Below, piece after piece: positions 1 through 14,019 of a stretch of 14,019 nucleotides of DNA. A program made the translations under genes and the position numbers. The notes under the pieces were generated by a model. The model ran no database searches. It saw only the letters and a list, made by a program, of their open reading frames with translations, and had not been told where the DNA came from. How positions within the stretch are numbered: position 1 is the first letter of the stretch; each line of letters starts with the position of its first letter. The stretch is taken from IMG/VR virus record IMGVR_UViG_2698536552_000015; one strand, 5' to 3'. Source of the DNA: a virus (lineage: Duplodnaviria; Heunggongvirae; Uroviricota; Caudoviricetes).

Positions 1-1236
1 CTACGATAACCGCGCATTCAACATGGCTACCTGTTCGTCGTTCATGTCATCAATCCACATACCGTAAATTTCATACACCATCTGCGCAGTTTCATGCCCC
101 ATCTGGCTGGCTATAAACGCCGGGTTCGCTCCTGCCGTCAACAGCCAGCAGGCAAAAGTATGCCGCGTATGGTACGGATTACGGCGGCGAATACCAGCAC
201 GTTTTACTGCTGCATTCCATCTCGCACCCAAACTGCTTACCGAGTAATAAGGTTTCTGTTTTCCGTTACACACTCTGGGCATGAAAACAAAATGCAGTTT
301 TTGCTTTTCGGTTCTGCCGTACTCCCGATGATAAAAAGTGATTTCGCTTTTGCGATGATGCCCGGTCAGTTTGTATTGCTCCTTCAGTGCTTCAAGAGCA
401 GGCTGCAGTAGTGTTACCGTCCGGATCCCCGCATTTGTTTTTGGGGGACCGAACATATCCAGTATCGTCAGGTTTCTTCTGACATTCACAACTCCCTTCT
501 CGAAATCCACATCCTCCCACGCCAGAGCAGCCAGTTCCCCGTGACGAAGCCCGGAGTATACGGCAAATTTCCACAAGTTCTGGCTCTGTCCTTTTTCACT
601 TTCCATTAATGCATTGAATTCTGTTTTAGATAACGGGTCAGGCTTTATTCTGTTTCTCTGTAATTTCTTTACTCCTTCAAATGGTTTGGTTGATATAAAT
701 CCCGACTGATACGCAAAACGTAACAACGAACAGAGCAGGGCGATATAGTTATCAACTGTGCGCACGGTTCTTCCTTTTTTGTTGGATCTTGGATTATCCA
801 GGTAAAGCGTTTCTCCATGCAGCAGTTCATTCCGGTAGTTTAAGATATCGCTATAACGAATATGCGATATCGGAGTACTCTCACAAATTATTATCCTGAG
901 TGTTTTTAATTGTGATTTCGTTTTCTTCATTGTGTTTGTTGTTAACTCTGTTTCTTTAATTTTTGTCCAGATATCACAAAGCTCCCCGAACGTTTTTATG
1001 ACCCTCGTTGTCACCATTTTTGCCCCAGTGCTGGACTGGGGAAAACGTCTTAAATACTCAAACTCACCGGAATTGATTTCATGAACTATCAACGCTCTTA
1101 AATTCCCGGCTTTTTTAATGTTACTGTTAGTAACCTCCCAGCCTTTCAATGTTTCCCGACATCGTTTTCCTCGAAACATGAACCAGATGCGAATGTATTT
1201 ACCTCGAATCTCGACACCTGTTGGTAATTTAGACAT
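1..1236 (-). CDS. intR: Rac-type prophage tyrosine integrase (411 aa), complete; stop codon is the first three bases of the window
   Basis: ORF track 1..1236 (-). Protein begins MSKLPTGVEIRGKYIRIWFMFRGKRCRETLKGW and ends in a tyrosine-recombinase C-terminal region (…NPYHTRHTFACWLLTAGANPAFIASQMGHETAQMVYEIY). Matches IntR of Rac as recalled. xis stop lies 1 nt upstream. Confidence 0.95.
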   Translation of the reverse strand: MSKLPTGVEIRGKYIRIWFMFRGKRCRETLKGWEVTNSNIKKAGNLRALIVHEINSGEFEYLRRFPQSSTGAKMVTTRVIKTFGELCDIWTKIKETELTTNTMKKTKSQLKTLRIIICESTPISHIRYSDILNYRNELLHGETLYLDNPRSNKKGRTVRTVDNYIALLCSLLRFAYQSGFISTKPFEGVKKLQRNRIKPDPLSKTEFNALMESEKGQSQNLWKFAVYSGLRHGELAALAWEDVDFEKGVVNVRRNLTILDMFGPPKTNAGIRTVTLLQPALEALKEQYKLTGHHRKSEITFYHREYGRTEKQKLHFVFMPRVCNGKQKPYYSVSSLGARWNAAVKRAGIRRRNPYHTRHTFACWLLTAGANPAFIASQMGHETAQMVYEIYGMWIDDMNDEQVAMLNARLS

Positions 1237-1552: not shown

Positions 1553-1741
1553 TCACGAGGACTGAAGTTTCTCGCAATTAAAATTTATCAGTTTTACTTT
1601 CTGCTCTCTGGAAACGCCTGCTTCTTTTTTACCTGAGAGCATTTTTTCGCATTCTGATTTCGTTAGTTTAGATTTTGAATATCTTGTCCAGTTAGTAGGA
1701 GTGCCACCTTCCTTTTCAATAGTGGCGGTAATTTTATACAT
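1553..1741 (-). CDS. ydaC: Small Rac prophage protein YdaC/RcbA-like (62 aa)
   Basis: ATG at 1741 (MYKITATIEKEGGTPTNWTRYSKSKLTKSECEKMLSGKKEAGVSREQKVKLINFNCEKLQSS) inside ORF 1553..1813. The start overlaps the 3' end of the ralR frame by 8 nt. Confidence 0.7.
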   Translation of the reverse strand: MYKITATIEKEGGTPTNWTRYSKSKLTKSECEKMLSGKKEAGVSREQKVKLINFNCEKLQSS

Positions 1742-1928
1742 GAACACCTCCATTATTATTTCCAGTGGTTCGTTTATTTCATCGTTCGAGTGCTTCTTTT
1801 TCACTTCCACCATAACCGGTTCGGGATTCGCATCCGTTACACTTCGCTCGGTAATATCCTGAAATGGCTTTCACCGTTACTGATGGACAACCACAAAATG
1901 GACATGGTTTAACATTGTCATATCTCAT
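1734..1928 (-). pseudogene. ralR: ralR-like gene (restriction alleviation / type I toxin) with an in-frame TGA at codon 50; 49-aa product if terminated, 64 codons if read through
   Basis: Hand translation of the minus strand from ATG 1926-1928: MRYDNVKPCPFCGCPSVTVKAISGYYRAKCNGCESRTGYGGSEKEALER, then TGA (plus 1779-1781), then in frame NKRTTGNNNGGVHV and TAA at 1734-1736. Absent from the ORF track because it is under 60 aa. The in-frame tail matches the RalR C-terminus as I recall it. Confidence 0.55.
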
Positions 1929-1956
1929 AATTTTTCTCATAAAAATATTTCAAGTT

Positions 1957-2793: not shown

Positions 2794-5386
2794 TTGCATA
2801 TTCCTTAGCCCAGCGGGGCAGTGATAACGTCTTAATAGCTGGCCATTCATCGGTATTGAGGCAGTCAGCCAGGGTTCGCAGATTGCGGTGATATTCCAGC
2901 TGACCTGCCAGTTTTGCTTCTTCGCCCATCATGAAAATTTCAACCGGATAACGTCCGCATTCAATAGTTGTGCTGGCAACCAGAAAAACGAAAGTTGGCT
3001 GCACTCCAAACTGTGCTTCATAACCGTCACTGTAGAATGCATCCTGAACGTGATAGCGGTAGTCGTAATAAGCGGTTTTGAATCGTTGAATATCCGCCGT
3101 AGTTTTCACGTCCATGATCCAGTGAAATTCAGGGATAATTTTGTCCGGACGGCACCGACACAAAATTGCTGTTTCAGGATCTTCCCAGTAAATTGATGAT
3201 TCAGCGTGTCCGGCGCTTTCAACAAGCCATTGCCCCAGCGGCAAAGCCATAACGCTCTGATACATGAGTTCAATTTTCCGGCCTTCTTCGGCAGTGATAA
3301 CCGTTTTTCCTGTGCTTGCGCATTCCCTCAGAAACGCTTTCTCTTCTTCTTTTCCGGAGTTTGTCCGGCGGTTAAATTCAGGTGCTACGATAAAGCGGTT
3401 ACTGAATTCTTCCGGCTCAAGTACCCGGCAGTGGAAAGCGGTTCCTAAATCGAGCGTTTTTGTCTTTGTGGTGTCCACGGGGGCATTTTTACGCCACAAA
3501 TACAGTGCCGGAGTATCAGCAATGTCATCGAGCTGAGACTTACTGACACCGGGACCCGCGTGGTAATTCTCATTCGAAATTCCGTAATAAATACCTGGCT
3601 CTATGTCTTCTACGATTACGGGATCTGCGACTTCGCCAGTTTCATCACTGCAATCGCGATGCGGATCGCTGCCAGCATTCTCATTGTGCGGATGTTCAGC
3701 GCCTTCCATTTCCTCCGGATCATTTTCCTTAGCTTCAACCTGACTCTCTTCATCGAATGTTTCCTGGTATGTTGCGTCGCCCATCACCGCACCACAGTCA
3801 GGGCAGTTATCCCCGCCAGTCTGGCCGCAGGCATTGCAGGCTATTTCCGGTTCCTGTTGCACTACTGGCTCAGGTTGATTCATATCCGGGCTGGTTTTTT
3901 CCGTTTCTGGCTGGTTCTGGTACACACAATCGCGAGTCTGGATCCCCTTTACCCATTTCGGATCGTTCGGGTCGCTAATTCCGTCAACAAATTCACCACG
4001 TGATGCAGCAAGCAATTTATCGGCATCGACAGGATTTTTTGATGGAATGTTTTTCCGGGCTTCATGGAGTTCTGCCCGCAGTTCCTGATATTTCGCATCA
4101 ACAGAATTTACCTGTGACTGAGCATCCAGCGGCTGCGTGTCCTGATGATGTTCAGTTGCGTCCGGTTCCATTGTTTCAGCCTCTCCCTGTTCAACTGCCG
4201 TTGTTCCAGATGGTTGCGGTTTTTCTTCATCATCCTGTTTTCCTTCTTCTGTTACTCGCTGCGGCATCGGGGCAGAGGAGCGACCGCAGGCAATATCCAC
4301 GATTTCCGGATCAGGGTTGGCATGATCGGTTTCAGTCAGTACTTTGTTCAGATATTCAGTGACGTGCGCGGGGATGACCTCGATCCCAATTGGTGCTTCT
4401 TTTACGGACGCAACCACGATGGCGCGGGAATAATCCAGCCCGCCAGGCATGGTGATGAATTTGTCGCGGAAAACAGAAAAGGGCGGTTTATTTTCAGCGA
4501 TAATTTCCTCAATGCGTTTAGCGTGTGCCGGATGAAGGTTATAGATGTCCAGATCCATTGAACGGGCCAGTACGCCAGTGGCTACGTCCCGCGCCAGTGA
4601 CGTCAGATCGTGTACGAAACCTTCGCCGCGATCGGTGAGGTTTCCGCCGCCAGCATTAGCACCGGAAGCCGTGCGAGTGATGTGTGAAACACGATTACCC
4701 TTCATCCACTCTTTTGTCAGCAGTCCTCGATCGGTGTAGTCAGCGTTCAGGTATGCTTCGAAAAAAGCAGTTATCAGTCCCAGGTTTGAATTACCAGGAT
4801 TAGGGAAAACTTTGTCAGTGTCACGAACCAGTTTGTGGAGTTCGCGAATTTCCAGCGGGTCGAGCAGGCTGGTTTTGTGGGAAACAGCCAGGGCAGTAAC
4901 AGCCGGTAGTTCTTCAGCCCGAGCAATGTGTAATGCCTGGAGTCCGTCGCGTGAAACGTGCGTTACCGGTTTTTCGCTGCCGTGTTGAGCAAGCCAACGA
5001 ATGGGCAGTTCCTGGCCAGAAATTGGGAGTAGCATATTCTCCTCAATCTCAGTCATGTCTTCGCCGTTGACGTTGGTATTGCCTTGATAGTGAGCGTTGT
5101 CTGGTGCTGCTCCCGGTTTTAGTTCCCATGTCATGGAGTCTTTGCTGAGTTGATAGCGTTCACTCCAGGTAAAATCGATCTCACCTTCAGCGGGCAGGTC
5201 ATTAACGACAGGAAAATTCGTGGCAACAGCTTTAAAATAGCTGCTCAGTTTTTTACCTGACTTAACGATCAGGTAGTCCAGAGTGGCACAGGTCGATTCA
5301 AAATCGTTGCTTGCCCACAGGACGACGTCAGGTTCACCGGATGATTTTTTCGCTTTCCGTAACAGGAAGAGTGGTTTTGTGCTCAT
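2786..5386 (-). CDS. recE: Exodeoxyribonuclease VIII RecE (866 aa)
   Basis: ORF track 2786..5386 (-), 866 aa, [33 protein letters not shown]… with an acidic low-complexity middle and a C-terminal nuclease domain. Matches RecE of Rac in length and sequence as recalled. Confidence 0.95.
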
Positions 5387-5459
5387 TGTTTTTTAACCTC
5401 AACTCAGATTAAAATTCGTTTTGTTCAGTGAATGATCTTGCCGGATACACACTGTTCAT

Positions 5460-5480
5460 AGCCTGCGCCATACGCAGGCT
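5460..5480. other. 8-bp perfect inverted repeat AGCCTGCG-ccata-CGCAGGCT in the racC-recE intergenic region
   Basis: Read directly from the sequence. Lies 7 nt downstream of the racC stop on the minus-strand transcript and is followed on the plus strand by ATTTCTTTCA. Candidate RNA stem-loop or weak terminator. Confidence 0.3.
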
Positions 5481-5487
5481 ATTTCTT

Positions 5488-5763
5488 TCAGATTTCACCT
5501 TTTAATTTCATTGCAATTAGAGTTGCCAGAAATTCGGCTTTTTTTTCTGCGGGCAGATTCTTTCCGATATGCACCAGGCACATTTTTTTGACACCTTCAT
5601 CAAGTGTTTTTACGTTGCCTGATGGACCATCGATATCAACCACAGTGAATGGGGTTTCTTTATTTTCTGTTTTAATTACGTAGCCAATGCGCTTTCCTTC
5701 CAGATTCACCTCGTGAACAATGTCATCGGTAGTTACAACAGTGGCTTCATAATTGGTAATCAT
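5488..5763 (-). CDS. racC: Rac prophage protein RacC (91 aa)
   Basis: Internal ATG at 5763 in ORF 5488..5811 gives MITNYEATVVTTDDIVHEVNLEGKRIGYVIKTENKETPF…KLKGEI. AAGGAGAAA Shine-Dalgarno upstream. Confidence 0.85.
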   Translation of the reverse strand: MITNYEATVVTTDDIVHEVNLEGKRIGYVIKTENKETPFTVVDIDGPSGNVKTLDEGVKKMCLVHIGKNLPAEKKAEFLATLIAMKLKGEI

Positions 5764-6008: not shown

Positions 6009-6229
6009 CACCATGACTCCGCCTTTACAGGTAAACCATCACGACCGAGGAAGACTTTAATCATGCGGTCAGTAATGCATGTTTTTGTGGTCAGGTTACG
6101 AATATATAGTTTTCGCTTTTTAATATTGTTTGCCGAGGCAATATATGTCCGGCCTTCATGAAGAACATAATCGCCAGGAGTCACACACTGACGTGGTATT
6201 TCATCAGTTCCGAAGTGATGTGCAATCAT
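6008..6229 (-). CDS. kilR: Killing protein KilR, FtsZ-targeting cell-division inhibitor (73 aa)
   Basis: ATG at 6229 in ORF 6008..6241 gives [77 protein letters not shown] Shine-Dalgarno 6 nt upstream. Confidence 0.85.
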
Positions 6230-6410
6230 AATTATCTCCATTTTTACAAATGAACTTTGTTGATGCGGTGCCTGGTGCCTCCAGGTGACTGCAACCAGTT
6301 AACAATTACAGTCGGCTTTCCCACCCAAACCAATAAGGACTAACATGACTTTTAACTGTGCCACGTGCGCTTAGCCGCATTCACCGCATCACAAAATTCA
6401 CTTTAAAAAG

Positions 6411-6452
6411 GGCGGACATCAGCCGAACTTCAAGAAAAAAACTGATGCCGCC
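6411..6452. promoter_or_regulatory. Imperfect inverted repeat GGCGGACATCAG-N19-CTGATGCCGCC in the kilR/sieB divergent intergenic region
   Basis: Read directly: arms at 6411-6422 and 6442-6452 are complementary apart from a 1-nt bulge. Candidate protein-binding site or RNA structure near the presumed early-left promoter. Confidence 0.3.
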
Positions 6453-6670
6453 AGGACTACACACAGCAATGTCGTTATTTACAACCGGAGGCGCACTCCC
6501 ACCATTTAAATTTAACAGACAAGACCGACTCTTTATGGATATCGGAAATGCGCCTTCGTGTTGTGCCCGGTTTTATTTCACCACCTCCGGGCTTCGGTGG
6601 TCTCGGCTATACCCCTACAGCGAGAGCTTGTGTTAACATTTCAATACCCTTACAGTTGAGAGTTATTGAT

Positions 6671-8500: not shown

Positions 8501-8919
8501 AAATCAAGCATGAGCACATCGAGTCAGTGTTGTTAGCCCTGGCAGCCGAAAAAGGGCAGGCATGGGTAGCCAATGCCATTACTGAAGAATATCTGCGCCA
8601 GGGGGGCGGCGAATTGCCCCTGGTACCAGGCAAGGACTGGAATAATCAGCAGAATATCTATCACCGTTGGTTGAAAGGTGAAACGAAAACGCAAAGAGAA
8701 AAAATTCAGAAGCTGATCCCAGCAATTCTGGCAATCCTTCCGCGCGAGCTGCGTCACCGACTCTGCATCNNNNNNNNNNNNNNNNNNNNNNNNNNNNNNN
8801 NNNNNNNNNNNNNNNNNNNNNNNNNNNNNNNNNNNNNNNNNNNNNNNNNNNNNNNNNNNNNNNNNNNNNNNNNNNNNNNNNNNNNNNNNNNNNNNNNNNN
8901 NNNNNNNNNNNNNNNNNNN
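8497..8919 (+). CDS. ydaT: YdaT-like protein; N-terminal 91 codons visible (8497..8769), 3' end hidden in an N run (end inferred from a recalled length of about 140 aa)
   Basis: MKIKHEHIESVLLALAAEKGQAWVANAITEEYLRQGGGELPLVPGKDWNNQQNIYHRWLKGETKTQREKIQKLIPAILAILPRELRHRLCI then N run. GGGAG Shine-Dalgarno upstream. Confidence 0.7.
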
Positions 8920-9030
8920 NNNNNNNNNNNNNNNNNNNNNNNNNNNNNNNNNNNNNNNNNNNNNNNNNNNNNNNNNNNNNNNNNNNNNNNNNNNNNNNNN
9001 NNNNNNNNNNNNNNNNNNNNNNNNNNNNNN
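8770..9030. other. N-masked run (261 nt), no sequence information
   Basis: Run of n in the input; hides the ydaT 3' end and ydaU 5' end. Confidence 0.99.
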
Positions 9031-9814
9031 TACCTGGCTGACACCATGCATTTGTCAGCAGAGGAGCATGGTGCGTATTTGTTGCTGATGTTCAATTACT
9101 GGCAAACAGGAAAGCCAATACCTAAAAACAGGCTGGCAAAAATTGCCCGTCTGACTAACGAGCGATGGGCTGATGTTGAACCATCCTTGCAGGAGTTTTT
9201 TTGCGATAACGGCGAGGAATGGGTGCATCTTCGGATTGAGGAAGATCTGGCATCANNNNNNNNNNNNNNNNNNNNNNNNNNNNNNNNNNNNNNNNNNNNN
9301 NNNNNNNNNNNNNNNNNNNNNNNNNNNNNNNNNNNNNNNNNNNNNNNNNNNNNNNNNNNNNNNNNNNNNNNNNNNNNNNNNNNNNNNNNNNNNNNNNNNN
9401 NNNNNNNNNNNNNNNNNNNNNNNNNNNNNNNNNNNNNNNNNNNNNNNNNNNNNNNNNNNNNNNNNNNNNNNNNNNNNNNNNNNNNNNNNNNNNNNNNNNN
9501 NNNNNAAAAAGTTTGACCCTCTGGATATTGCTTTGCCGAACTGGATTTCTGTCTCGCTTTGGCGTGAGTGGGTTGAATTTCGCCAGGCATTGCGAAAACC
9601 GATTCGAACGGAGCAGGGCGCTAACGGGGCGATACGGGAGCTGGAAAAATTCCGCCAGCAGGGTTTTTCACCTGAGCAGGTGATTCGACACAGCATCGCC
9701 AATGAATACCAGGGCTTGTTCGCGCCGAAAGGTGTTCGACCTGAGACGTTACTCCGACAGGTTAACACCGTCTCGTTACCGGATAGTGCGATCCCGCCAG
9801 GCTTCAGGGGGTAA
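8957..9814 (+). CDS. ydaU: DUF1376-type replication-associated protein YdaU-like; start inferred inside an N run, interrupted by a second N run
   Basis: Visible segments: 9031-9255 YLADTMHLSAEEHGAYLLLMFNYWQTGKPIPKNRLAKIARLTNERWADVEPSLQEFFCDNGEEWVHLRIEEDLAS (DUF1376-like motif), and 9506-9814 KKFDPLDIALPNWISVSLWREWVEFRQALRKPIRTEQGANGAIRELEKFRQQGFSPEQVIRHSIANEYQGLF…PPGFRG*. The two segments are in different frames (+1 across the 250-nt N run). Confidence 0.65.
9256..9505. other. N-masked run (250 nt)
   Basis: Run of n in the input, inside ydaU. Confidence 0.99.
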
Positions 9815-9820
9815 CTGACC

Positions 9821-11022
9821 ATGAAAAATATTGCGACAGGCGACGTTCTTGAACGTATCCGCAGACTGGCCCCGTCACATGTAACCGCGCCATTCAAGAC
9901 GGTAGCGGAGTGGCGCGAGTGGCAACTTTCCGAAGGCCAGAAACGTTGTGAGGAGATCAACCGTCAGAATCGTCAGTTGCGGGTGGAAAAAATTCTGAAT
10001 CGCTCTGGCATCCAGCCATTGCACCGCAAATGCTCGTTTTCGAATTACCAGGTGCAGAACGAAGCGCAGCGATACGCGTTGAGTCAGGCGAAATCCATCG
10101 CTGATGAACTGATGACCGGGTGTACAAATTTTGCGTTCAGCGGAAAACCTGGTACCGGGAAGAACCACTTAGCGGCAGCTATCGGGAATCGCCTGCTGAA
10201 AGACGGTCAGACAGTGATTGTGGTTACCGTGGCTGATGTTATGAGTGNNNNNNNNNNNNNNNNNNNNNNNNNNNNNNNNNNNNNNNNNNNNNNNNNNNNN
10301 NNNNNNNNNNNNNNNNNNNNNNNNNNNNNNNNNNNNNNNNNNNNNNNNNNNNNNNNNNNNNNNNNNNNNNNNNNNNNNNNNNNNNNNNNNNNNNNNNNNN
10401 NNNNNNNNNNNNNNNNNNNNNNNNNNNNNNNNNNNNNNNNNNNNNNNNNNNNNNNNNNNNNNNNNNNNNNNNNNNNNNNNNNNNNNNNNNNNNNNNNNNN
10501 NGAACGACGGCCAGCGATACGCGTTAAGCCAGGCGAAATCCATCGCCGATGAACNNNNNNNNNNNNNNNNNNNNNNNNNNNNNNNNNNNNNNNNNNNNNN
10601 NNNNNNNNNNNNNNNNNNNNNNNNNNNNNNNNNNNNNNNNNNNNNNNNNNNNNNNNNNNNNNNNNNNNNNNNNNNNNNNNNNNNNNNNNNNNNNNNNNNN
10701 NNNNNNNNNNNNNNNNNNNNNNNNNNNNNNNNNNNNNNNNNNNNNNNNNNNNNNNNNNNNNNNNNNNNNNNNNNNNNNNNNNNNNNNNNNNNNNNNNNNN
10801 NNNNNNNNNNNNNNNNNNNNGGTGGTGCTGCACCAGATTGTTGATCGCCGGACAGCGTCGATGCGCAGCGTGGGGATGCTGACAAACCTGAACTATGAGG
10901 TGATGAAAACATTGCTCGGCGAGCGGGTGATGGATCGCATGGTCATGAACGGCGGGCGCTGGGTGAATTTTAACTGGGAGAGCTGGCGTCCGAATGTTAG
11001 CCATTCGAGGGTTGTTAAGTAG
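9821..11022 (+). CDS. ydaV: DnaC-like replication/helicase-loader protein YdaV region with an AAA+ Walker A motif; about 450 nt longer than expected and containing a diverged second copy of an internal segment (one enlarged gene, or a 5' fragment plus a second full copy)
   Basis: N-terminal 142 codons visible (9821-10246): MKNIATGDVLERIRRLAPSHVTAPFKTVAEW…FSGKPGTGKNHLAAAIGNRLLKDGQTVIVVTVADVMS. C-terminal segment 10822-11022: VVLHQIVDRRTASMRSVGMLTNLNYEVMKTLLGERVMDRMVMNGGRWVNFNWESWRPNVSHSRVVK*. The island 10502-10554 repeats residues around 79-96. Frames differ between segments (2, 3, 1). Confidence 0.7.
10248..10501. other. N-masked run (254 nt)
   Basis: Run of n in the input, inside the ydaV region. 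Confidence 0.99.
10555..10820. other. N-masked run (266 nt)
   Basis: Run of n in the input, inside the ydaV region. Confidence 0.99.
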
Positions 11023-11036
11023 TTTCAGGAGGATTT

Positions 11037-11459
11037 ATGGCGAAACCTTTTACTCCCGAACAGCGGGAAGAACTGAAGACGCGAATTGTGGAACTCGTGC
11101 ATCAGGACGGTCGGGTCACGATTCGGCAGTTGTCAGATGAAACAGGTATCAGTCGTGCGTCTGTCGGTCGCTTATGCATAGAACTGGTCGCAAGTGGTGA
11201 TGTATATAATTCTGGCTACGGCTTATTCCCGTCTGAACAGGCTCGCAAGGACTGGCAAAGCGCCCGCAAAAAACTCTCGAGAGTAAAGGTGAGGAAACCG
11301 GTTGTTGTTGATCCGGACCTTATCTGGTCATTACCTGACGGAGAAATACGCCGCTACGACAGGCGCCTGAATATAATCTGTCGCGAGTGCCGGAAGAGCG
11401 AAGCTATGCAGCGTGTACTGGCTTTCTATCAGGGTAATTTTCAGGAGGCGATACTGTGA
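11037..11459 (+). CDS. Hypothetical prophage protein (140 aa) with a predicted N-terminal winged helix-turn-helix
   Basis: ORF track 11037..11459; AGGAGG Shine-Dalgarno 4 nt upstream. The segment VTIRQLSDETGISRASVGRLCIELVASGDV looks like an HTH; a single CxxC (CRECRK) lies in the C-terminal half. Family not recognised with confidence. Confidence 0.6.
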   Translation: MAKPFTPEQREELKTRIVELVHQDGRVTIRQLSDETGISRASVGRLCIELVASGDVYNSGYGLFPSEQARKDWQSARKKLSRVKVRKPVVVDPDLIWSLPDGEIRRYDRRLNIICRECRKSEAMQRVLAFYQGNFQEAIL

Positions 11460-11516
11460 ATGAAATTAGCTATCAGGCTTCAATTACCGCTGGCATTCGC
11501 ATCAAAGGAGAGGAGC

Positions 11517-11873
11517 ATGGAAATAAAACCAGAAGATGAGTTAAGCAATATCGTTTTATTTCCGGTAAAAGAGGATGACCCTCGTAATCAGGTTAATTTT
11601 CTTTATGAGCCATCGGAAAGACCATATTGCCATCACGCCTCTGTACGGGTTGACGAAAAAGAGCGTCAGGTCCGCTGTAAAATCTGCGGTGCGGTTGTGG
11701 AGCCGTTTGACTGGATGCTCTCTGTGGCAAAAAGAGAAACCAGACTGGCAGATGATGTAAGGCTATTGCGCCAGGAGGAACAGGAAAGGCGGAGAAATAT
11801 AGAAAAGCTGATACAGATTGAGCGTAACGCGAAAGCGCGGATACGCAGGGCGACAAAATCCAGAACTGAATAA
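11517..11873 (+). CDS. Hypothetical small protein (118 aa) with a C-x15-CxxC zinc-ribbon-like motif and a basic coiled-coil tail; alternative start at 11460 (137 aa)
   Basis: ORF 11460..11873; internal ATG at 11517 has a strong AAGGAG Shine-Dalgarno with a 6-nt spacer. Motif YCHHASVRVDEKERQVRCKICG; C-terminus RLLRQEEQERRRNIEKLIQIERNAKARIRRATKSRTE. Confidence 0.55.
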   Translation: MEIKPEDELSNIVLFPVKEDDPRNQVNFLYEPSERPYCHHASVRVDEKERQVRCKICGAVVEPFDWMLSVAKRETRLADDVRLLRQEEQERRRNIEKLIQIERNAKARIRRATKSRTE

Positions 11874-12020
11874 TTAAATTTAGCACTGTTAAAAATTTAA
11901 TCCTTAACCGGAGGGATTTCTGCACCCTCAAATCATCAGGAGACCACCCGAAAGGGCGGGGAGCAGTCACACATCTGTTTCCGATAGCCCCGTTCTAATG
12001 CTACACTCTTTGATATTTTT

Positions 12021-12707
12021 ATGACCCCAATAAACATATTTATGACAGTTGCTGATTTCAAACGGCCCAAATTGGAGCTCCCAAACGGGGCAAACAAACT
12101 ACTACTGCACTCTTGCTGTGCTCCATGTTCCGGTGAGGTGATGGAGGCGCTTCAGGCCTCGGGAATCGACTACACCATCTTTTTCTACAACCCGAACATT
12201 CATCCTCAGAAAGAGTATTTAATTCGTAAGGATGAGAATATTCGCTTTGCTGAACAACACGGCGTGCCGTTTATTGATGCTGATTACGACACAGACAACT
12301 GGTTTGAACGAGCCAAAGGAATGGAATGGGAGCCCGAACGAGGGATCCGTTGCACCATGTGTTTTGACATGCGTTTTGAGCGGACAGCGCTGTACGCCGC
12401 TGAAAATGGTTTCAGTGTGATCAGCAGTTCACTGGGCATTTCACGCTGGAAAAATATGCAGCAGGTTAACGACTGTGGGCGGCGAGCCGTCGCGCATTAT
12501 CCGGGCATGGTGTACTGGGATTATAACTGGCGCAAGCAGGGCGGCTCGTCCCGTATGATTGAAATCAGCAAGCGCGAAAAATTCTATCAGCAGGAATATT
12601 GTGGCTGTGTGTATTCTCTGCGCGATACCAATCTACACCGCAAATCTCAGGGACGCCCTCTTATCAAAATTGGTCAACTCCACTACGGTAAAGAAGAGAA
12701 GGAGTGA
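12021..12707 (+). CDS. queH: QueH-like epoxyqueuosine reductase (DUF208 family), 228 aa
   Basis: ORF track 12021..12707. Motifs as I recall for QueH/DUF208: [23 protein letters not shown], and C-terminal YCGCVYSL. No obvious Shine-Dalgarno; the true start may be the ATG at 12042. Confidence 0.65.
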
Positions 12708-12728
12708 TTTTATGGGGCACCTTTCTGA

Positions 12729-12758
12729 TTGATTTCATATTGGCGAGGTAAGTAGAAT
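12729..12758 (+). promoter_or_regulatory. Candidate sigma70 promoter of the hok/mok mRNA (TTGATT-N18-TAGAAT)
   Basis: -35 at 12729-12734, -10 at 12753-12758. The predicted start site (about 12762-12765) coincides with the 5' element that is complementary to the mRNA 3' end. Confidence 0.4.
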
Positions 12759-12819
12759 GACTGCGGGTGCTTGAGGCTATCTGCTTCAGGCATGAACACC
12801 AAAAGGCAGATAGAGAAAA

Positions 12820-12886
12820 GCCCCAGTTAACATTACGCGTCCGGCAAGACGCTTAACATTAATCTGAGGCCAATTTCATGCTTTGC
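12820..12886 (-). ncRNA. Candidate Sok-like antisense RNA overlapping the mok translation start (coordinates approximate)
   Basis: Minus-strand promoter-like hexamers TTGCCT (complement of 12916-12921), 17-nt spacer, TAACCT (complement of 12893-12898). Position relative to mok/hok matches the known hok/sok organisation. The 3' end is not defined. Confidence 0.25.
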
Positions 12887-13090
12887 ACATGTAGGTTAGC
12901 CTCTTACATGCCGAAAGGCAAGGAGAAGCAGGCTATGAAGCAGCAAAAGGCGATGTTAATCGCCCTGATCGTCATCTGTTTAACCGTCATAGTGACGGCA
13001 CTGGTAACGAGGAAAGACCTCTGTGAGGTACGAATCCGAACCGGCCAGACGGAGGTCGCTGTCTTCGTAGACTACGAATCCAGGAAGTAA
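12878..13090 (+). CDS. Mok-like reading frame (70 aa): in-frame N-terminal extension of hok, as in mokC/hokC
   Basis: ATG at 12878 in the same frame as hok (MLCTCRLASYMPKGKEKQA + Hok), the same arrangement as the chromosomal mokC/hokC pair as recalled. Confidence 0.5.
   Translation: MLCTCRLASYMPKGKEKQAMKQQKAMLIALIVICLTVIVTALVTRKDLCEVRIRTGQTEVAVFVDYESRK
12935..13090 (+). CDS. Hok/Gef-family type I toxin (51 aa), HokC/HokD-like membrane peptide
   Basis: MKQQKAMLIALIVICLTVIVTALVTRKDLCEVRIRTGQTEVAVFVDYESRK carries the family signature LVTRKDLCEV-IRTGQTEVAVF. AAGGAGAAG Shine-Dalgarno upstream. Confidence 0.9.
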   Translation: MKQQKAMLIALIVICLTVIVTALVTRKDLCEVRIRTGQTEVAVFVDYESRK

Positions 13091-13098
13091 GAGTGACC

Positions 13099-13126
13099 GG
13101 GCGGGGAGCTGATCCCATCCCCGCCC
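13099..13126 (+). other. Perfect 9-bp GC-rich stem-loop (GGGCGGGGA-N10-TCCCCGCCC) 9 nt after the hok stop
   Basis: Read directly from the sequence; part of the structured hok mRNA 3' region. Confidence 0.5.
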
Positions 13127-13166
13127 ACCTCTGATGTGTCAGGCATCCTCAACGCACCCGCACTTA

Positions 13167-13216
13167 ACCCGCCCATCGCTGTGATCTCTCAGCGTTTCGG
13201 CGGGTTTTTTGTTGTT
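13167..13216 (+). terminator. Rho-independent terminator of the hok transcript
   Basis: Outer stem ACCCGCC/GGCGGGT (13167-13173, 13199-13205) with inner stem CGCTG/CAGCG, followed by TTTTTTGTTGTTT. Confidence 0.55.
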
Positions 13217-13230
13217 TATTTCCGGTGAAT

Positions 13231-13258
13231 TTGATTCGCGCACCTTCGCAGATAGAAT
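13231..13258 (+). promoter_or_regulatory. Candidate sigma70 promoter for the downstream small-gene operon (TTGATT-N16-TAGAAT)
   Basis: -35 at 13231-13236, -10 at 13253-13258; same hexamers as the candidate hok promoter. Confidence 0.35.
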
Positions 13259-13339
13259 CGACTCACTTAAGTAGCGCGCAGGGAGAAGAGGGATGGACCC
13301 CGAACAGGGGAGAGCTATTTATCTGGAAGGATTCTGAAG

Positions 13340-13627
13340 ATGAAAATCGAAGAATTGCGTGAAATTTTTAGTGAAAATGGCCTCTATGCTGTGCGCGTTG
13401 AGAATGGAGCGATTGTCAGCCATTGCCGCATTAGATGTTTGCAATCTCAACAAAGGAAGAGCGGTGCTGTGTTATTTTATTTTTGTAATGGACTTCTGAC
13501 GGACGGTTTTATTTTGCGTGAGGACGAATTTGTCACATCATTACGGGTTTTGAAAGAGATTGGTTTTAAGGCTGGTTTTCTGCTTTTGCTGAAGAATAAA
13601 CTCATCTACAATCTTGAGCAGGATTGA
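13340..13627 (+). CDS. Hypothetical protein (95 aa)
   Basis: ORF track 13340..13627; GGAAGG 9 nt upstream of the ATG; stop overlaps the next ORF. No family recognised. Confidence 0.45.
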   Translation: MKIEELREIFSENGLYAVRVENGAIVSHCRIRCLQSQQRKSGAVLFYFCNGLLTDGFILREDEFVTSLRVLKEIGFKAGFLLLLKNKLIYNLEQD

Positions 13628-13665: not shown

Positions 13666-14019
13666 ATGGCACATATACAACTGGTCAAACAAACCTCTTC
13701 CGGATTACTTCTCCCGGCGACGCCGGAGAGTTGCGATTTTCTGCATCAAATCAAAATAGGTGAGTGGATACACGCAGACTTTAAGCGTGTGTGTAACTAC
13801 GCATTCCACAAGCGTTTTTTCAAACTCCTGCAACTGGGTTTCGATTACTGGACTCCGGTCGGTGGGGCGATCACGCCTCGCGAACGAAAACTGGTGTCCG
13901 GTTTCGTTGATTACCTGTGTGAATCAGTAGGCCGGGAACATACGCCAGCTCTGAGCGAAGCCGCAGAGCAATTGAGGTGTACTGGCAATAGCGGACACTA
14001 CCATTTGTTCTTTTTTTAA
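13666..14019 (+). CDS. Conserved lambdoid nin-region-like hypothetical protein (117 aa from ATG 13666); stop codon is the last three bases of the window
   Basis: ORF 13624..14019 starts at a TTG; the ATG at 13666 has a GGAGAAAG Shine-Dalgarno and gives MAHIQLVKQTSSGLLLPATPESCDFLHQIKIGEWIHADFKRV…. Resembles prophage proteins I associate with a DUF family of nin regions, but I cannot name the family reliably. Confidence 0.55.
   Translation: MAHIQLVKQTSSGLLLPATPESCDFLHQIKIGEWIHADFKRVCNYAFHKRFFKLLQLGFDYWTPVGGAITPRERKLVSGFVDYLCESVGREHTPALSEAAEQLRCTGNSGHYHLFFF

Follow-up and report, generated by a model that had tools for sequence, protein, structure and literature searches.

A QueH-family gene carried by lambdoid prophages of Escherichia coli: apparent capture from an Enterobacteriaceae chromosome and a candidate cobalamin-independent route to queuosine

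The window, by which we mean the whole 14,019-nt stretch of DNA that was analyzed, is a Rac/Qin-type lambdoid prophage, and queH lies in its early-right cargo region, between the replication genes and hok/sok. The prophage location given in an initial annotation of this DNA thus holds. An integrase gene (1..1236, minus strand) is the leftmost prophage gene. It is followed, from left to right, by a RalR/RalA type I toxin-antitoxin, RecT- and RecE-sized ORFs, SieB and a repressor/Cro-like pair, and then by N-masked replication genes, a DUF977 gene, a 137-aa zinc-ribbon-like ORF, queH, sok with mok/hokD, and a DUF1367 gene. queH is on the early-right strand, the same as the replication genes. Directly downstream of it lies the sok RNA (12765-12940, plus strand; Rfam 117 bits against a gathering score of 59), and a 70-aa ORF of the hok/sok module (12878-13090, plus strand) carries a Hok/Gef domain and matches the PHROG 'MokW-like host killing'. 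A promoter-like site is found by this module at 12729-12758. A search of the window for tRNA genes found none.

Several features lie away from the cargo region. A RalA antitoxin sRNA (225 bits; gathering score 170) adjoins a 53-aa ORF (MRKIMRYDNVKPCPFCG...), with coordinates 1557-1735 (plus strand) and 1779-1940 (minus strand). The ORF resembles the RalR toxin, and we take it to form, with RalA, the type I toxin-antitoxin pair of the Rac prophage. Sub-threshold matches to DicF (39.1 bits against 48; 6410-6465, minus strand) and STnc100 (35.5 against 47; 6222-6408, minus strand), placed between a kil-like region and sieB, may mark a diverged DicF-type sRNA locus. Within the replication-gene region (about 8750-10900; ydaU/ydaV-type ORFs), several stretches are masked and translated as runs of X. 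At the right end, identity to the FDAARGOS_944 prophage, otherwise 99.9%, ends at 13972, inside the DUF1367 gene; the sequence beyond it, 13973-14019 (TGAGGTGTACTGGCAATAGCGGACACTACC...), looks to us like an IS3-family terminal inverted repeat, presumably from an IS insertion. The best match to the window, in FDAARGOS_944 and FDAARGOS_943, extends over no more than its right-hand 3 kb.

The gene had initially been placed at 12021-12707. An ORF of that extent (plus strand, 228 aa) is in the ORF list of the window and is real, but comparative data favor the ATG at 12042 over that at 12021. Alleles from the window, FDAARGOS_944, phage HannyBb (L002), an O157:H7 strain, E. coli B (L005) and Br_112 (L006) were aligned. 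The ATG at 12042 is invariant in 6/6 of these prophage or phage alleles, whereas at 12021 Br_112 reads ATT, with an in-frame TAA after it. Across the seven codons between the two ATGs, HannyBb and E. coli B differ by mostly non-synonymous changes. RefSeq WP_012421537.1, which is 100% identical to the window protein, begins at the equivalent of 12042, and chromosomal QueH homologues start at a Met matching this ATG. Because 12021 is not conserved, while 12042 is invariant and is used by RefSeq and the chromosomal homologues, the coding sequence is best placed at 12042..12707 (plus strand; 221 aa plus stop). The upstream in-frame extension of the longest ORF (12021..12041, plus strand) is probably 5' UTR rather than coding sequence.

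A still later start, at the internal M41, is implied by PHROG 3217 ('unknown function'), which matches residues 41-228 only (228-aa numbering), and by a truncated 'putative prophage protein' annotated at 5109-5678 of the contig L015. We rejected this start: the 33 codons from 12042 to the internal Met encode the essential CCAPC and are under purifying selection, as comparison of the window with Br_112 shows 8 synonymous differences there and 0 non-synonymous ones. PHROG 3217 is built from N-terminally truncated gene calls that start at the internal Met.

The DUF208/QueH motifs on which the gene was first recognized are present in the ORF, YCGC among them, and the PF02677 profile agrees with them. 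The profile search that had been proposed as a check gave a full-length match, well beyond anything expected by chance, to Pfam PF02677 QueH (residues 27-201 to profile positions 1-174 of 175; E=1.9e-65; 220.6 bits, cut-off 23.5), the sole Pfam family reported for the protein. NCBIfam had zero models at E<=0.01, which is a matter of library coverage and is not family-defining. Comparison with solved QueH structures, the second check proposed, showed that both sequence and predicted fold match Thermotoga maritima QueH. In a sequence search of PDB chains only T. maritima QueH (7lc5, 7lc7 and mutants) matched, with query residues 27-203 aligned end to end to residues 4-178 of 7lc5_A (E=5.3e-22). 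An AlphaFold2 model based on 26 homologues reached moderate confidence only (mean pLDDT 75.3, pTM 0.77). With Foldseek, the five best PDB matches of this model were all T. maritima QueH (target-normalised TM 0.78-0.80, E about 1e-9; 0.80 to both 7lc7 and 7lc5), and the E-values of the next-best folds, argininosuccinate synthetase and TtuA-type enzymes, were weaker by about four orders of magnitude. The ORF is confirmed as a full-length QueH family member by profile, by homology to a solved structure and by predicted fold.

The cysteines of the protein (221-aa numbering; all codons on the plus strand) occur as C25, C26 and C29 in a CCAPCS motif (12114..12131), as C104-x-x-C107 in RCTMC (12351..12362) and as C187-G-C189 in the YCGC motif (12600..12608). 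C25 and C26 align with C9 and C10 of the Thermotoga enzyme, and both the C104-x-x-C107 and the C187-G-C189 pairs are invariant in all aligned QueH, Thermotoga included. An alignment of 14 diverse QueH (including Thermotoga, S. aureus-type and gut-contig sequences) shows C25, C26, C104, C107, C187 and C189 without variation, and the same six are invariant in 26 proteobacterial QueH. The conserved cysteines of QueH are said to bind a [4Fe-4S] cluster and the iron next to it. C29 aligns with Asp13 of Thermotoga, the target of the D13N mutant structure 9DCO; here Thermotoga is the outlier, with CCAPD against CCAPC in the window, in S. aureus, in the gut contig and in all proteobacterial QueH aligned.

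As an identification this is not new: the exact window protein already bears the name 'epoxyqueuosine reductase QueH' in RefSeq, and the family itself is known from Zallot (2017) and Li (2021). A full-text literature search combining QueH or epoxyqueuosine reductase with prophage or phage returned no paper describing a phage-borne QueH. The biochemistry is ordinary, its location is somewhat unusual and has received little notice, and the novelty is modest. An annotation gap for queH in phage resources is nevertheless exposed. One verified phage genome in the phage collection carries queH, that of HannyBb (PP925841.1, L002 6001-6687), in which the gene is labeled 'hypothetical'. Widespread occurrence in sequenced phages was considered and rejected, as the other 'phage' matches are either virome contigs of unverified status or contigs of evidently bacterial origin. 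In L015 (CAKLQH020000001.1, 'Acinetobacter phage MD-2021a', 328 kb), soxR, cynX, tadA and LysR-type genes surround the QueH homologue, and the sequence looks like a fragment of a bacterial chromosome, not a phage.

The gene had also been described as having no Shine-Dalgarno sequence and a poor promoter. The former holds for both candidate starts, 12021 and 12042. The latter is correct in that a search of the plus strand upstream of queH found no canonical sigma-70 -35/-10 pair, but a conserved extended -10-like element, TGCTACACT, lies at 11999..12007 (plus strand). This candidate element, of the form TGnTAnnnT, is conserved in 5/6 prophage alleles; the TACACA that Br_112 has for TACACT would be expected to make the putative promoter weaker. 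At an equal distance from the start, chromosomal queH loci carry the 9-mer TGCTACACT in Erwinia, Enterobacter and Symbiopectobacterium and the variant TGCTACAAT in Scandinavium and Kluyvera, embedded in sequence that cannot be aligned, and the form common to these five genera is TGCTACA(C/A)T. In the 80 nt upstream of 78 loci, TGnTAnnnT occurs 22 times, 19 of them 42-50 nt from the start, where fewer than one would be expected by chance; that expectation is rough (uniform base composition) and the loci are phylogenetically related, so that the clustering is to be read as a footprint and not as a probability. From this pattern we infer a putative native promoter with an A/U-rich 5' UTR of about 27 nt that has no Shine-Dalgarno sequence.

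Other candidate signals were examined around the gene. Folding of the putative 5' UTR was no better than that of shuffled sequences (z=-0.48), and no intrinsic-terminator-like sites were found in 11400-13400. A minus-strand promoter-like site at 12061-12033 was rejected as being at chance level (3 found, 2.5 expected). A riboswitch or structured leader was likewise rejected: Rfam matches at E<=1 comprised only sok, RalA and the weak DicF and STnc100 matches elsewhere. A GNRA-loop hairpin (CCaCCC-GAAA-GGGcGG) is located at 11944-11959, within the 147-nt gap that precedes queH. Lacking a T-run, it is not a typical terminator; it is perfect in FDAARGOS_944, is limited to the prophage context of the window and is absent from the other alleles.

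The other contexts examined were those of O157:H7 Z1768, E. coli B, Br_112, FDAARGOS_944, APEC O1, strain 042 and phage HannyBb, all lambdoid prophages or phages. In each, queH is found downstream of the DUF977/replication block, either directly or past one short ORF or gene fragment, and is followed on its 3' side by variable cargo, namely hokD, an NgoMIV-type restriction-modification pair, a doc-family toxin gene or a DUF1971 gene. The slot just after queH is a cargo hot-spot, because in O157:H7 Z1768 (L004 6872-8882) genes for a cytosine methyltransferase and an NgoMIV-family restriction endonuclease follow queH where others have hokD. Farther downstream, near the lysis cassette, queH-carrying relatives have tRNA clusters (Ile, Arg, Thr, Gly; L001 17276-17586 and L006 10282-10435). 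None of these tRNAs is Q-modified, and they are a second kind of translation-related cargo.

Outside phage DNA, queH is a chromosomal housekeeping gene of other Enterobacterales, and the window protein is 76-92% identical to its products there and to QueH of many Proteobacteria. The nearest QueH outside Escherichia are those of Scandinavium (92%), Kluyvera (91%) and Enterobacter (89-90%). Neighbors of the chromosomal copies include purL with a two-component system and glnB in Erwinia, tmcA and purC in Providencia, DeoR/glycosidase genes in Enterobacter, and an SDR. Phage neighbors are absent in 79/80 related loci, E. albertii being the sole exception. Homology to the non-phage locus of Scandinavium (L020; blastn 84.9%) covers the ORF with about 48 nt before it and 4 nt after it, and nothing more. 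Between one prophage context and another, homology sets in at about 11971-11994 and ceases within a few bases of the stop codon. Because homology to the chromosomal locus is limited to 11994..12711 (plus strand), a segment running from the promoter region through the stop, and because homology across prophage loci has about the same extent, queH appears to be a single gene acquired from an Enterobacteriaceae chromosome along with about 48 nt of its native upstream DNA. The captured module would be a compact unit, the ORF together with its putative extended -10 element, that came to reside among the early-right, 'nin-like' cargo of prophages, and would offer a clean example of a temperate phage capturing a housekeeping gene together with its (putative) promoter.

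Pairwise Nei-Gojobori dN/dS values among prophage alleles range from 0.026 to 0.087 and are mostly 0.03-0.05, at dS up to 0.47, and the six alleles have zero frameshifts and zero premature stops. Prophage queH alleles are under strong purifying selection. It might be argued that queH is a decaying or silent passenger with no current function, given that its upstream region offers neither a Shine-Dalgarno sequence nor a canonical -35/-10 pair, that no terminator was found and that the copy in at least one genome (H25, 65% coverage) is truncated. We regard this as very improbable in view of the low dN/dS at such divergence, the intactness of all six alleles, the retention of all catalytic cysteines and the fact that nearly all carriers have most of the gene (see the counts below).

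We searched 5426 complete E. coli genomes, using K-12 DNA as the queG query. queG was present in 5426/5426, bearing out the earlier expectation, itself offered for checking, that the host has QueG. queH was present in 995/5426 (18%), almost always as a single copy, and 985/995 had at least 80% of the gene. Because queG is universal and queH is not, queH is an accessory, non-orthologous duplicate, which together with its lambdoid contexts agrees with its initial description as a non-orthologous gene acquired as cargo. Carriers include O157:H7 (Z1768), APEC O1, strain 042, E. coli B (REL606, ATCC 11303), E. coli C and ATCC 8739. In E. coli, cobalamin is required for the final reaction of Q synthesis, and queG (yjeS) was discovered through the oQ that accumulates in single-gene knock-outs of K-12 (Payne 2015, PMC4646009), which implies that K-12 is without a second reductase.

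E. coli makes oQ, which is formed on tRNA by QueA, and QueH has been described as iron-dependent. The predicted window enzyme, an iron-sulfur protein, would act on oQ at the wobble base (position 34) of tRNA-Asp, -Asn, -His and -Tyr and convert it into Q by removing the epoxide oxygen, with no need of cobalamin. Because all E. coli have the B12-dependent QueG and are not known to make B12 de novo, a cobalamin-independent last step of Q synthesis is the likely effect of acquiring queH. Its most likely role is that of a redundant, cobalamin-independent oQ-to-Q reductase, carried as lysogenic-conversion cargo, that in a lysogen would back up QueG when B12 is scarce. Because queH shares its strand with the replication genes, it could be transcribed in two ways, in lysogens from a promoter of its own and, once the prophage is induced, by read-through of early-right transcription. 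We infer use of the promoter, expression in lysogens, enzyme activity and a B12-sparing benefit; that B12 independence is of selective benefit in E. coli is conjecture. For the account as a whole, a functional QueH that was captured with its promoter and that, as prophage cargo, makes Q synthesis cobalamin-independent, we estimate a probability of about 0.8.

Read-through from the early-right transcript raises the alternative that QueH is mainly a lytic-phase enzyme. Early-right transcription would then raise the Q/oQ ratio so that NAU/NAC codons of late genes are read efficiently, and queH would be likened to the tRNA genes carried further downstream in some prophages. queH shares strand and operon position with the replication genes and precedes Q antiterminator-type genes, which is consistent with such a role, as are the downstream tRNA genes of related prophages and a 2026 preprint on Shewanella in which phage infection raises Q and lowers oQ through induction of queG. 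This modulation of the oQ-to-Q step in phage infection also lends the location of queH topical interest. Against a mainly lytic role, queH appears to have brought its own conserved promoter element instead of depending on phage signals, and defective prophages, such as the Qin-like element of E. coli B, keep an intact queH. We consider it unlikely as the principal function, and it is compatible with, rather than exclusive of, a reductase that backs up QueG in lysogens.

The initial annotation had also offered a part in phage nucleic-acid metabolism, which our analysis does not support. QueH would in that case act in 7-deazaguanine modification of phage DNA, on some new substrate or against host defence. 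Phages do use early genes of the Q pathway for DNA modification, but a survey found no homologues of QueA, QueG or QueH in the viruses that it analyzed (Hutinet 2019, PMC6884629). The DpdA/TGT-like transglycosylase and the preQ0 genes of the phage DNA-modification system, QueC, QueD and QueE included, were not found among the window ORFs or in a fully annotated related prophage. A PADLOC search for defence systems gave zero matches, which speaks against an anti-defence role, and a new function is difficult to reconcile with a protein nearly identical to housekeeping bacterial QueH and with zero sign of divergence. This is the least probable of the readings weighed here, and we give it hardly any credence.

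If the backup reductase is what queH encodes, phage cargo provides about 18% of E. coli, commonly used non-K-12 laboratory strains and an O157:H7 strain among them, with a second enzyme for a core step of tRNA modification, and conclusions drawn in K-12 on oQ versus Q and on B12 dependence may not transfer to queH carriers. A bolder claim, to which we give slightly less than even odds, is that prophage QueH is a true lysogenic-conversion factor for the tRNA epitranscriptome and the first Q-branch-specific enzyme documented as carried by a virus. Were it true, Q formation would be B12-independent in about one-fifth of E. coli strains, including B/REL606, C and ATCC 8739, and such strains would have Q in place of the oQ of K-12 at any time when cobalamin cannot be obtained and, more speculatively, after loss of the B12 importer BtuB.

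Among known systems, QueH of Thermotoga maritima (7LC5/7LC7) shares with the window protein its family, fold, six cysteines and full-length alignment, and presumably its reaction. The window protein differs in being only about 30% identical, in having Cys at the position of Asp13, in having about 20 extra residues at each end and in being encoded by a prophage. Chromosomal QueH of Enterobacter, Scandinavium, Kluyvera, Erwinia, Providencia and Photorhabdus is far closer (76-92% identity, same length and start), and the chromosomal Enterobacterales genes share the TGCTACA(C/A)T element upstream; those copies, however, sit among housekeeping genes, whereas the window copy sits between phage replication genes and hok/sok. 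QueG (E. coli yjeS) catalyzes the same reaction, presumed for the window QueH, on the same tRNA substrates, and both enzymes are encoded in queH-positive cells. QueG has no homology to the window protein, for which Pfam reports QueH alone; it needs cobalamin and belongs to the core genome, whereas QueH is accessory.

Redundancy of QueG and QueH has been reported in S. aureus and in some streptococci (S. pyogenes, S. suis), and the two reportedly co-occur in Acinetobacter baylyi ADP1. In these bacteria, as in queH-positive E. coli, two non-orthologous enzymes with different cofactors would serve one step, an arrangement read as a hedge against cofactor shortage; by analogy, the QueG/QueH pair would parallel the MetE/MetH pair. 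Both genes are chromosomal in those species, whereas in E. coli the second enzyme is phage-delivered and strain-variable. In this respect queH resembles the morons, or lysogenic-conversion cargo, of lambdoid phages, such as lambda bor and lom: it is a single gene with an apparently autonomous promoter, lies between phage modules and is present in only some related prophages. It departs from them in having no detected terminator and in what it encodes, a housekeeping enzyme of tRNA modification and not a surface or virulence factor.
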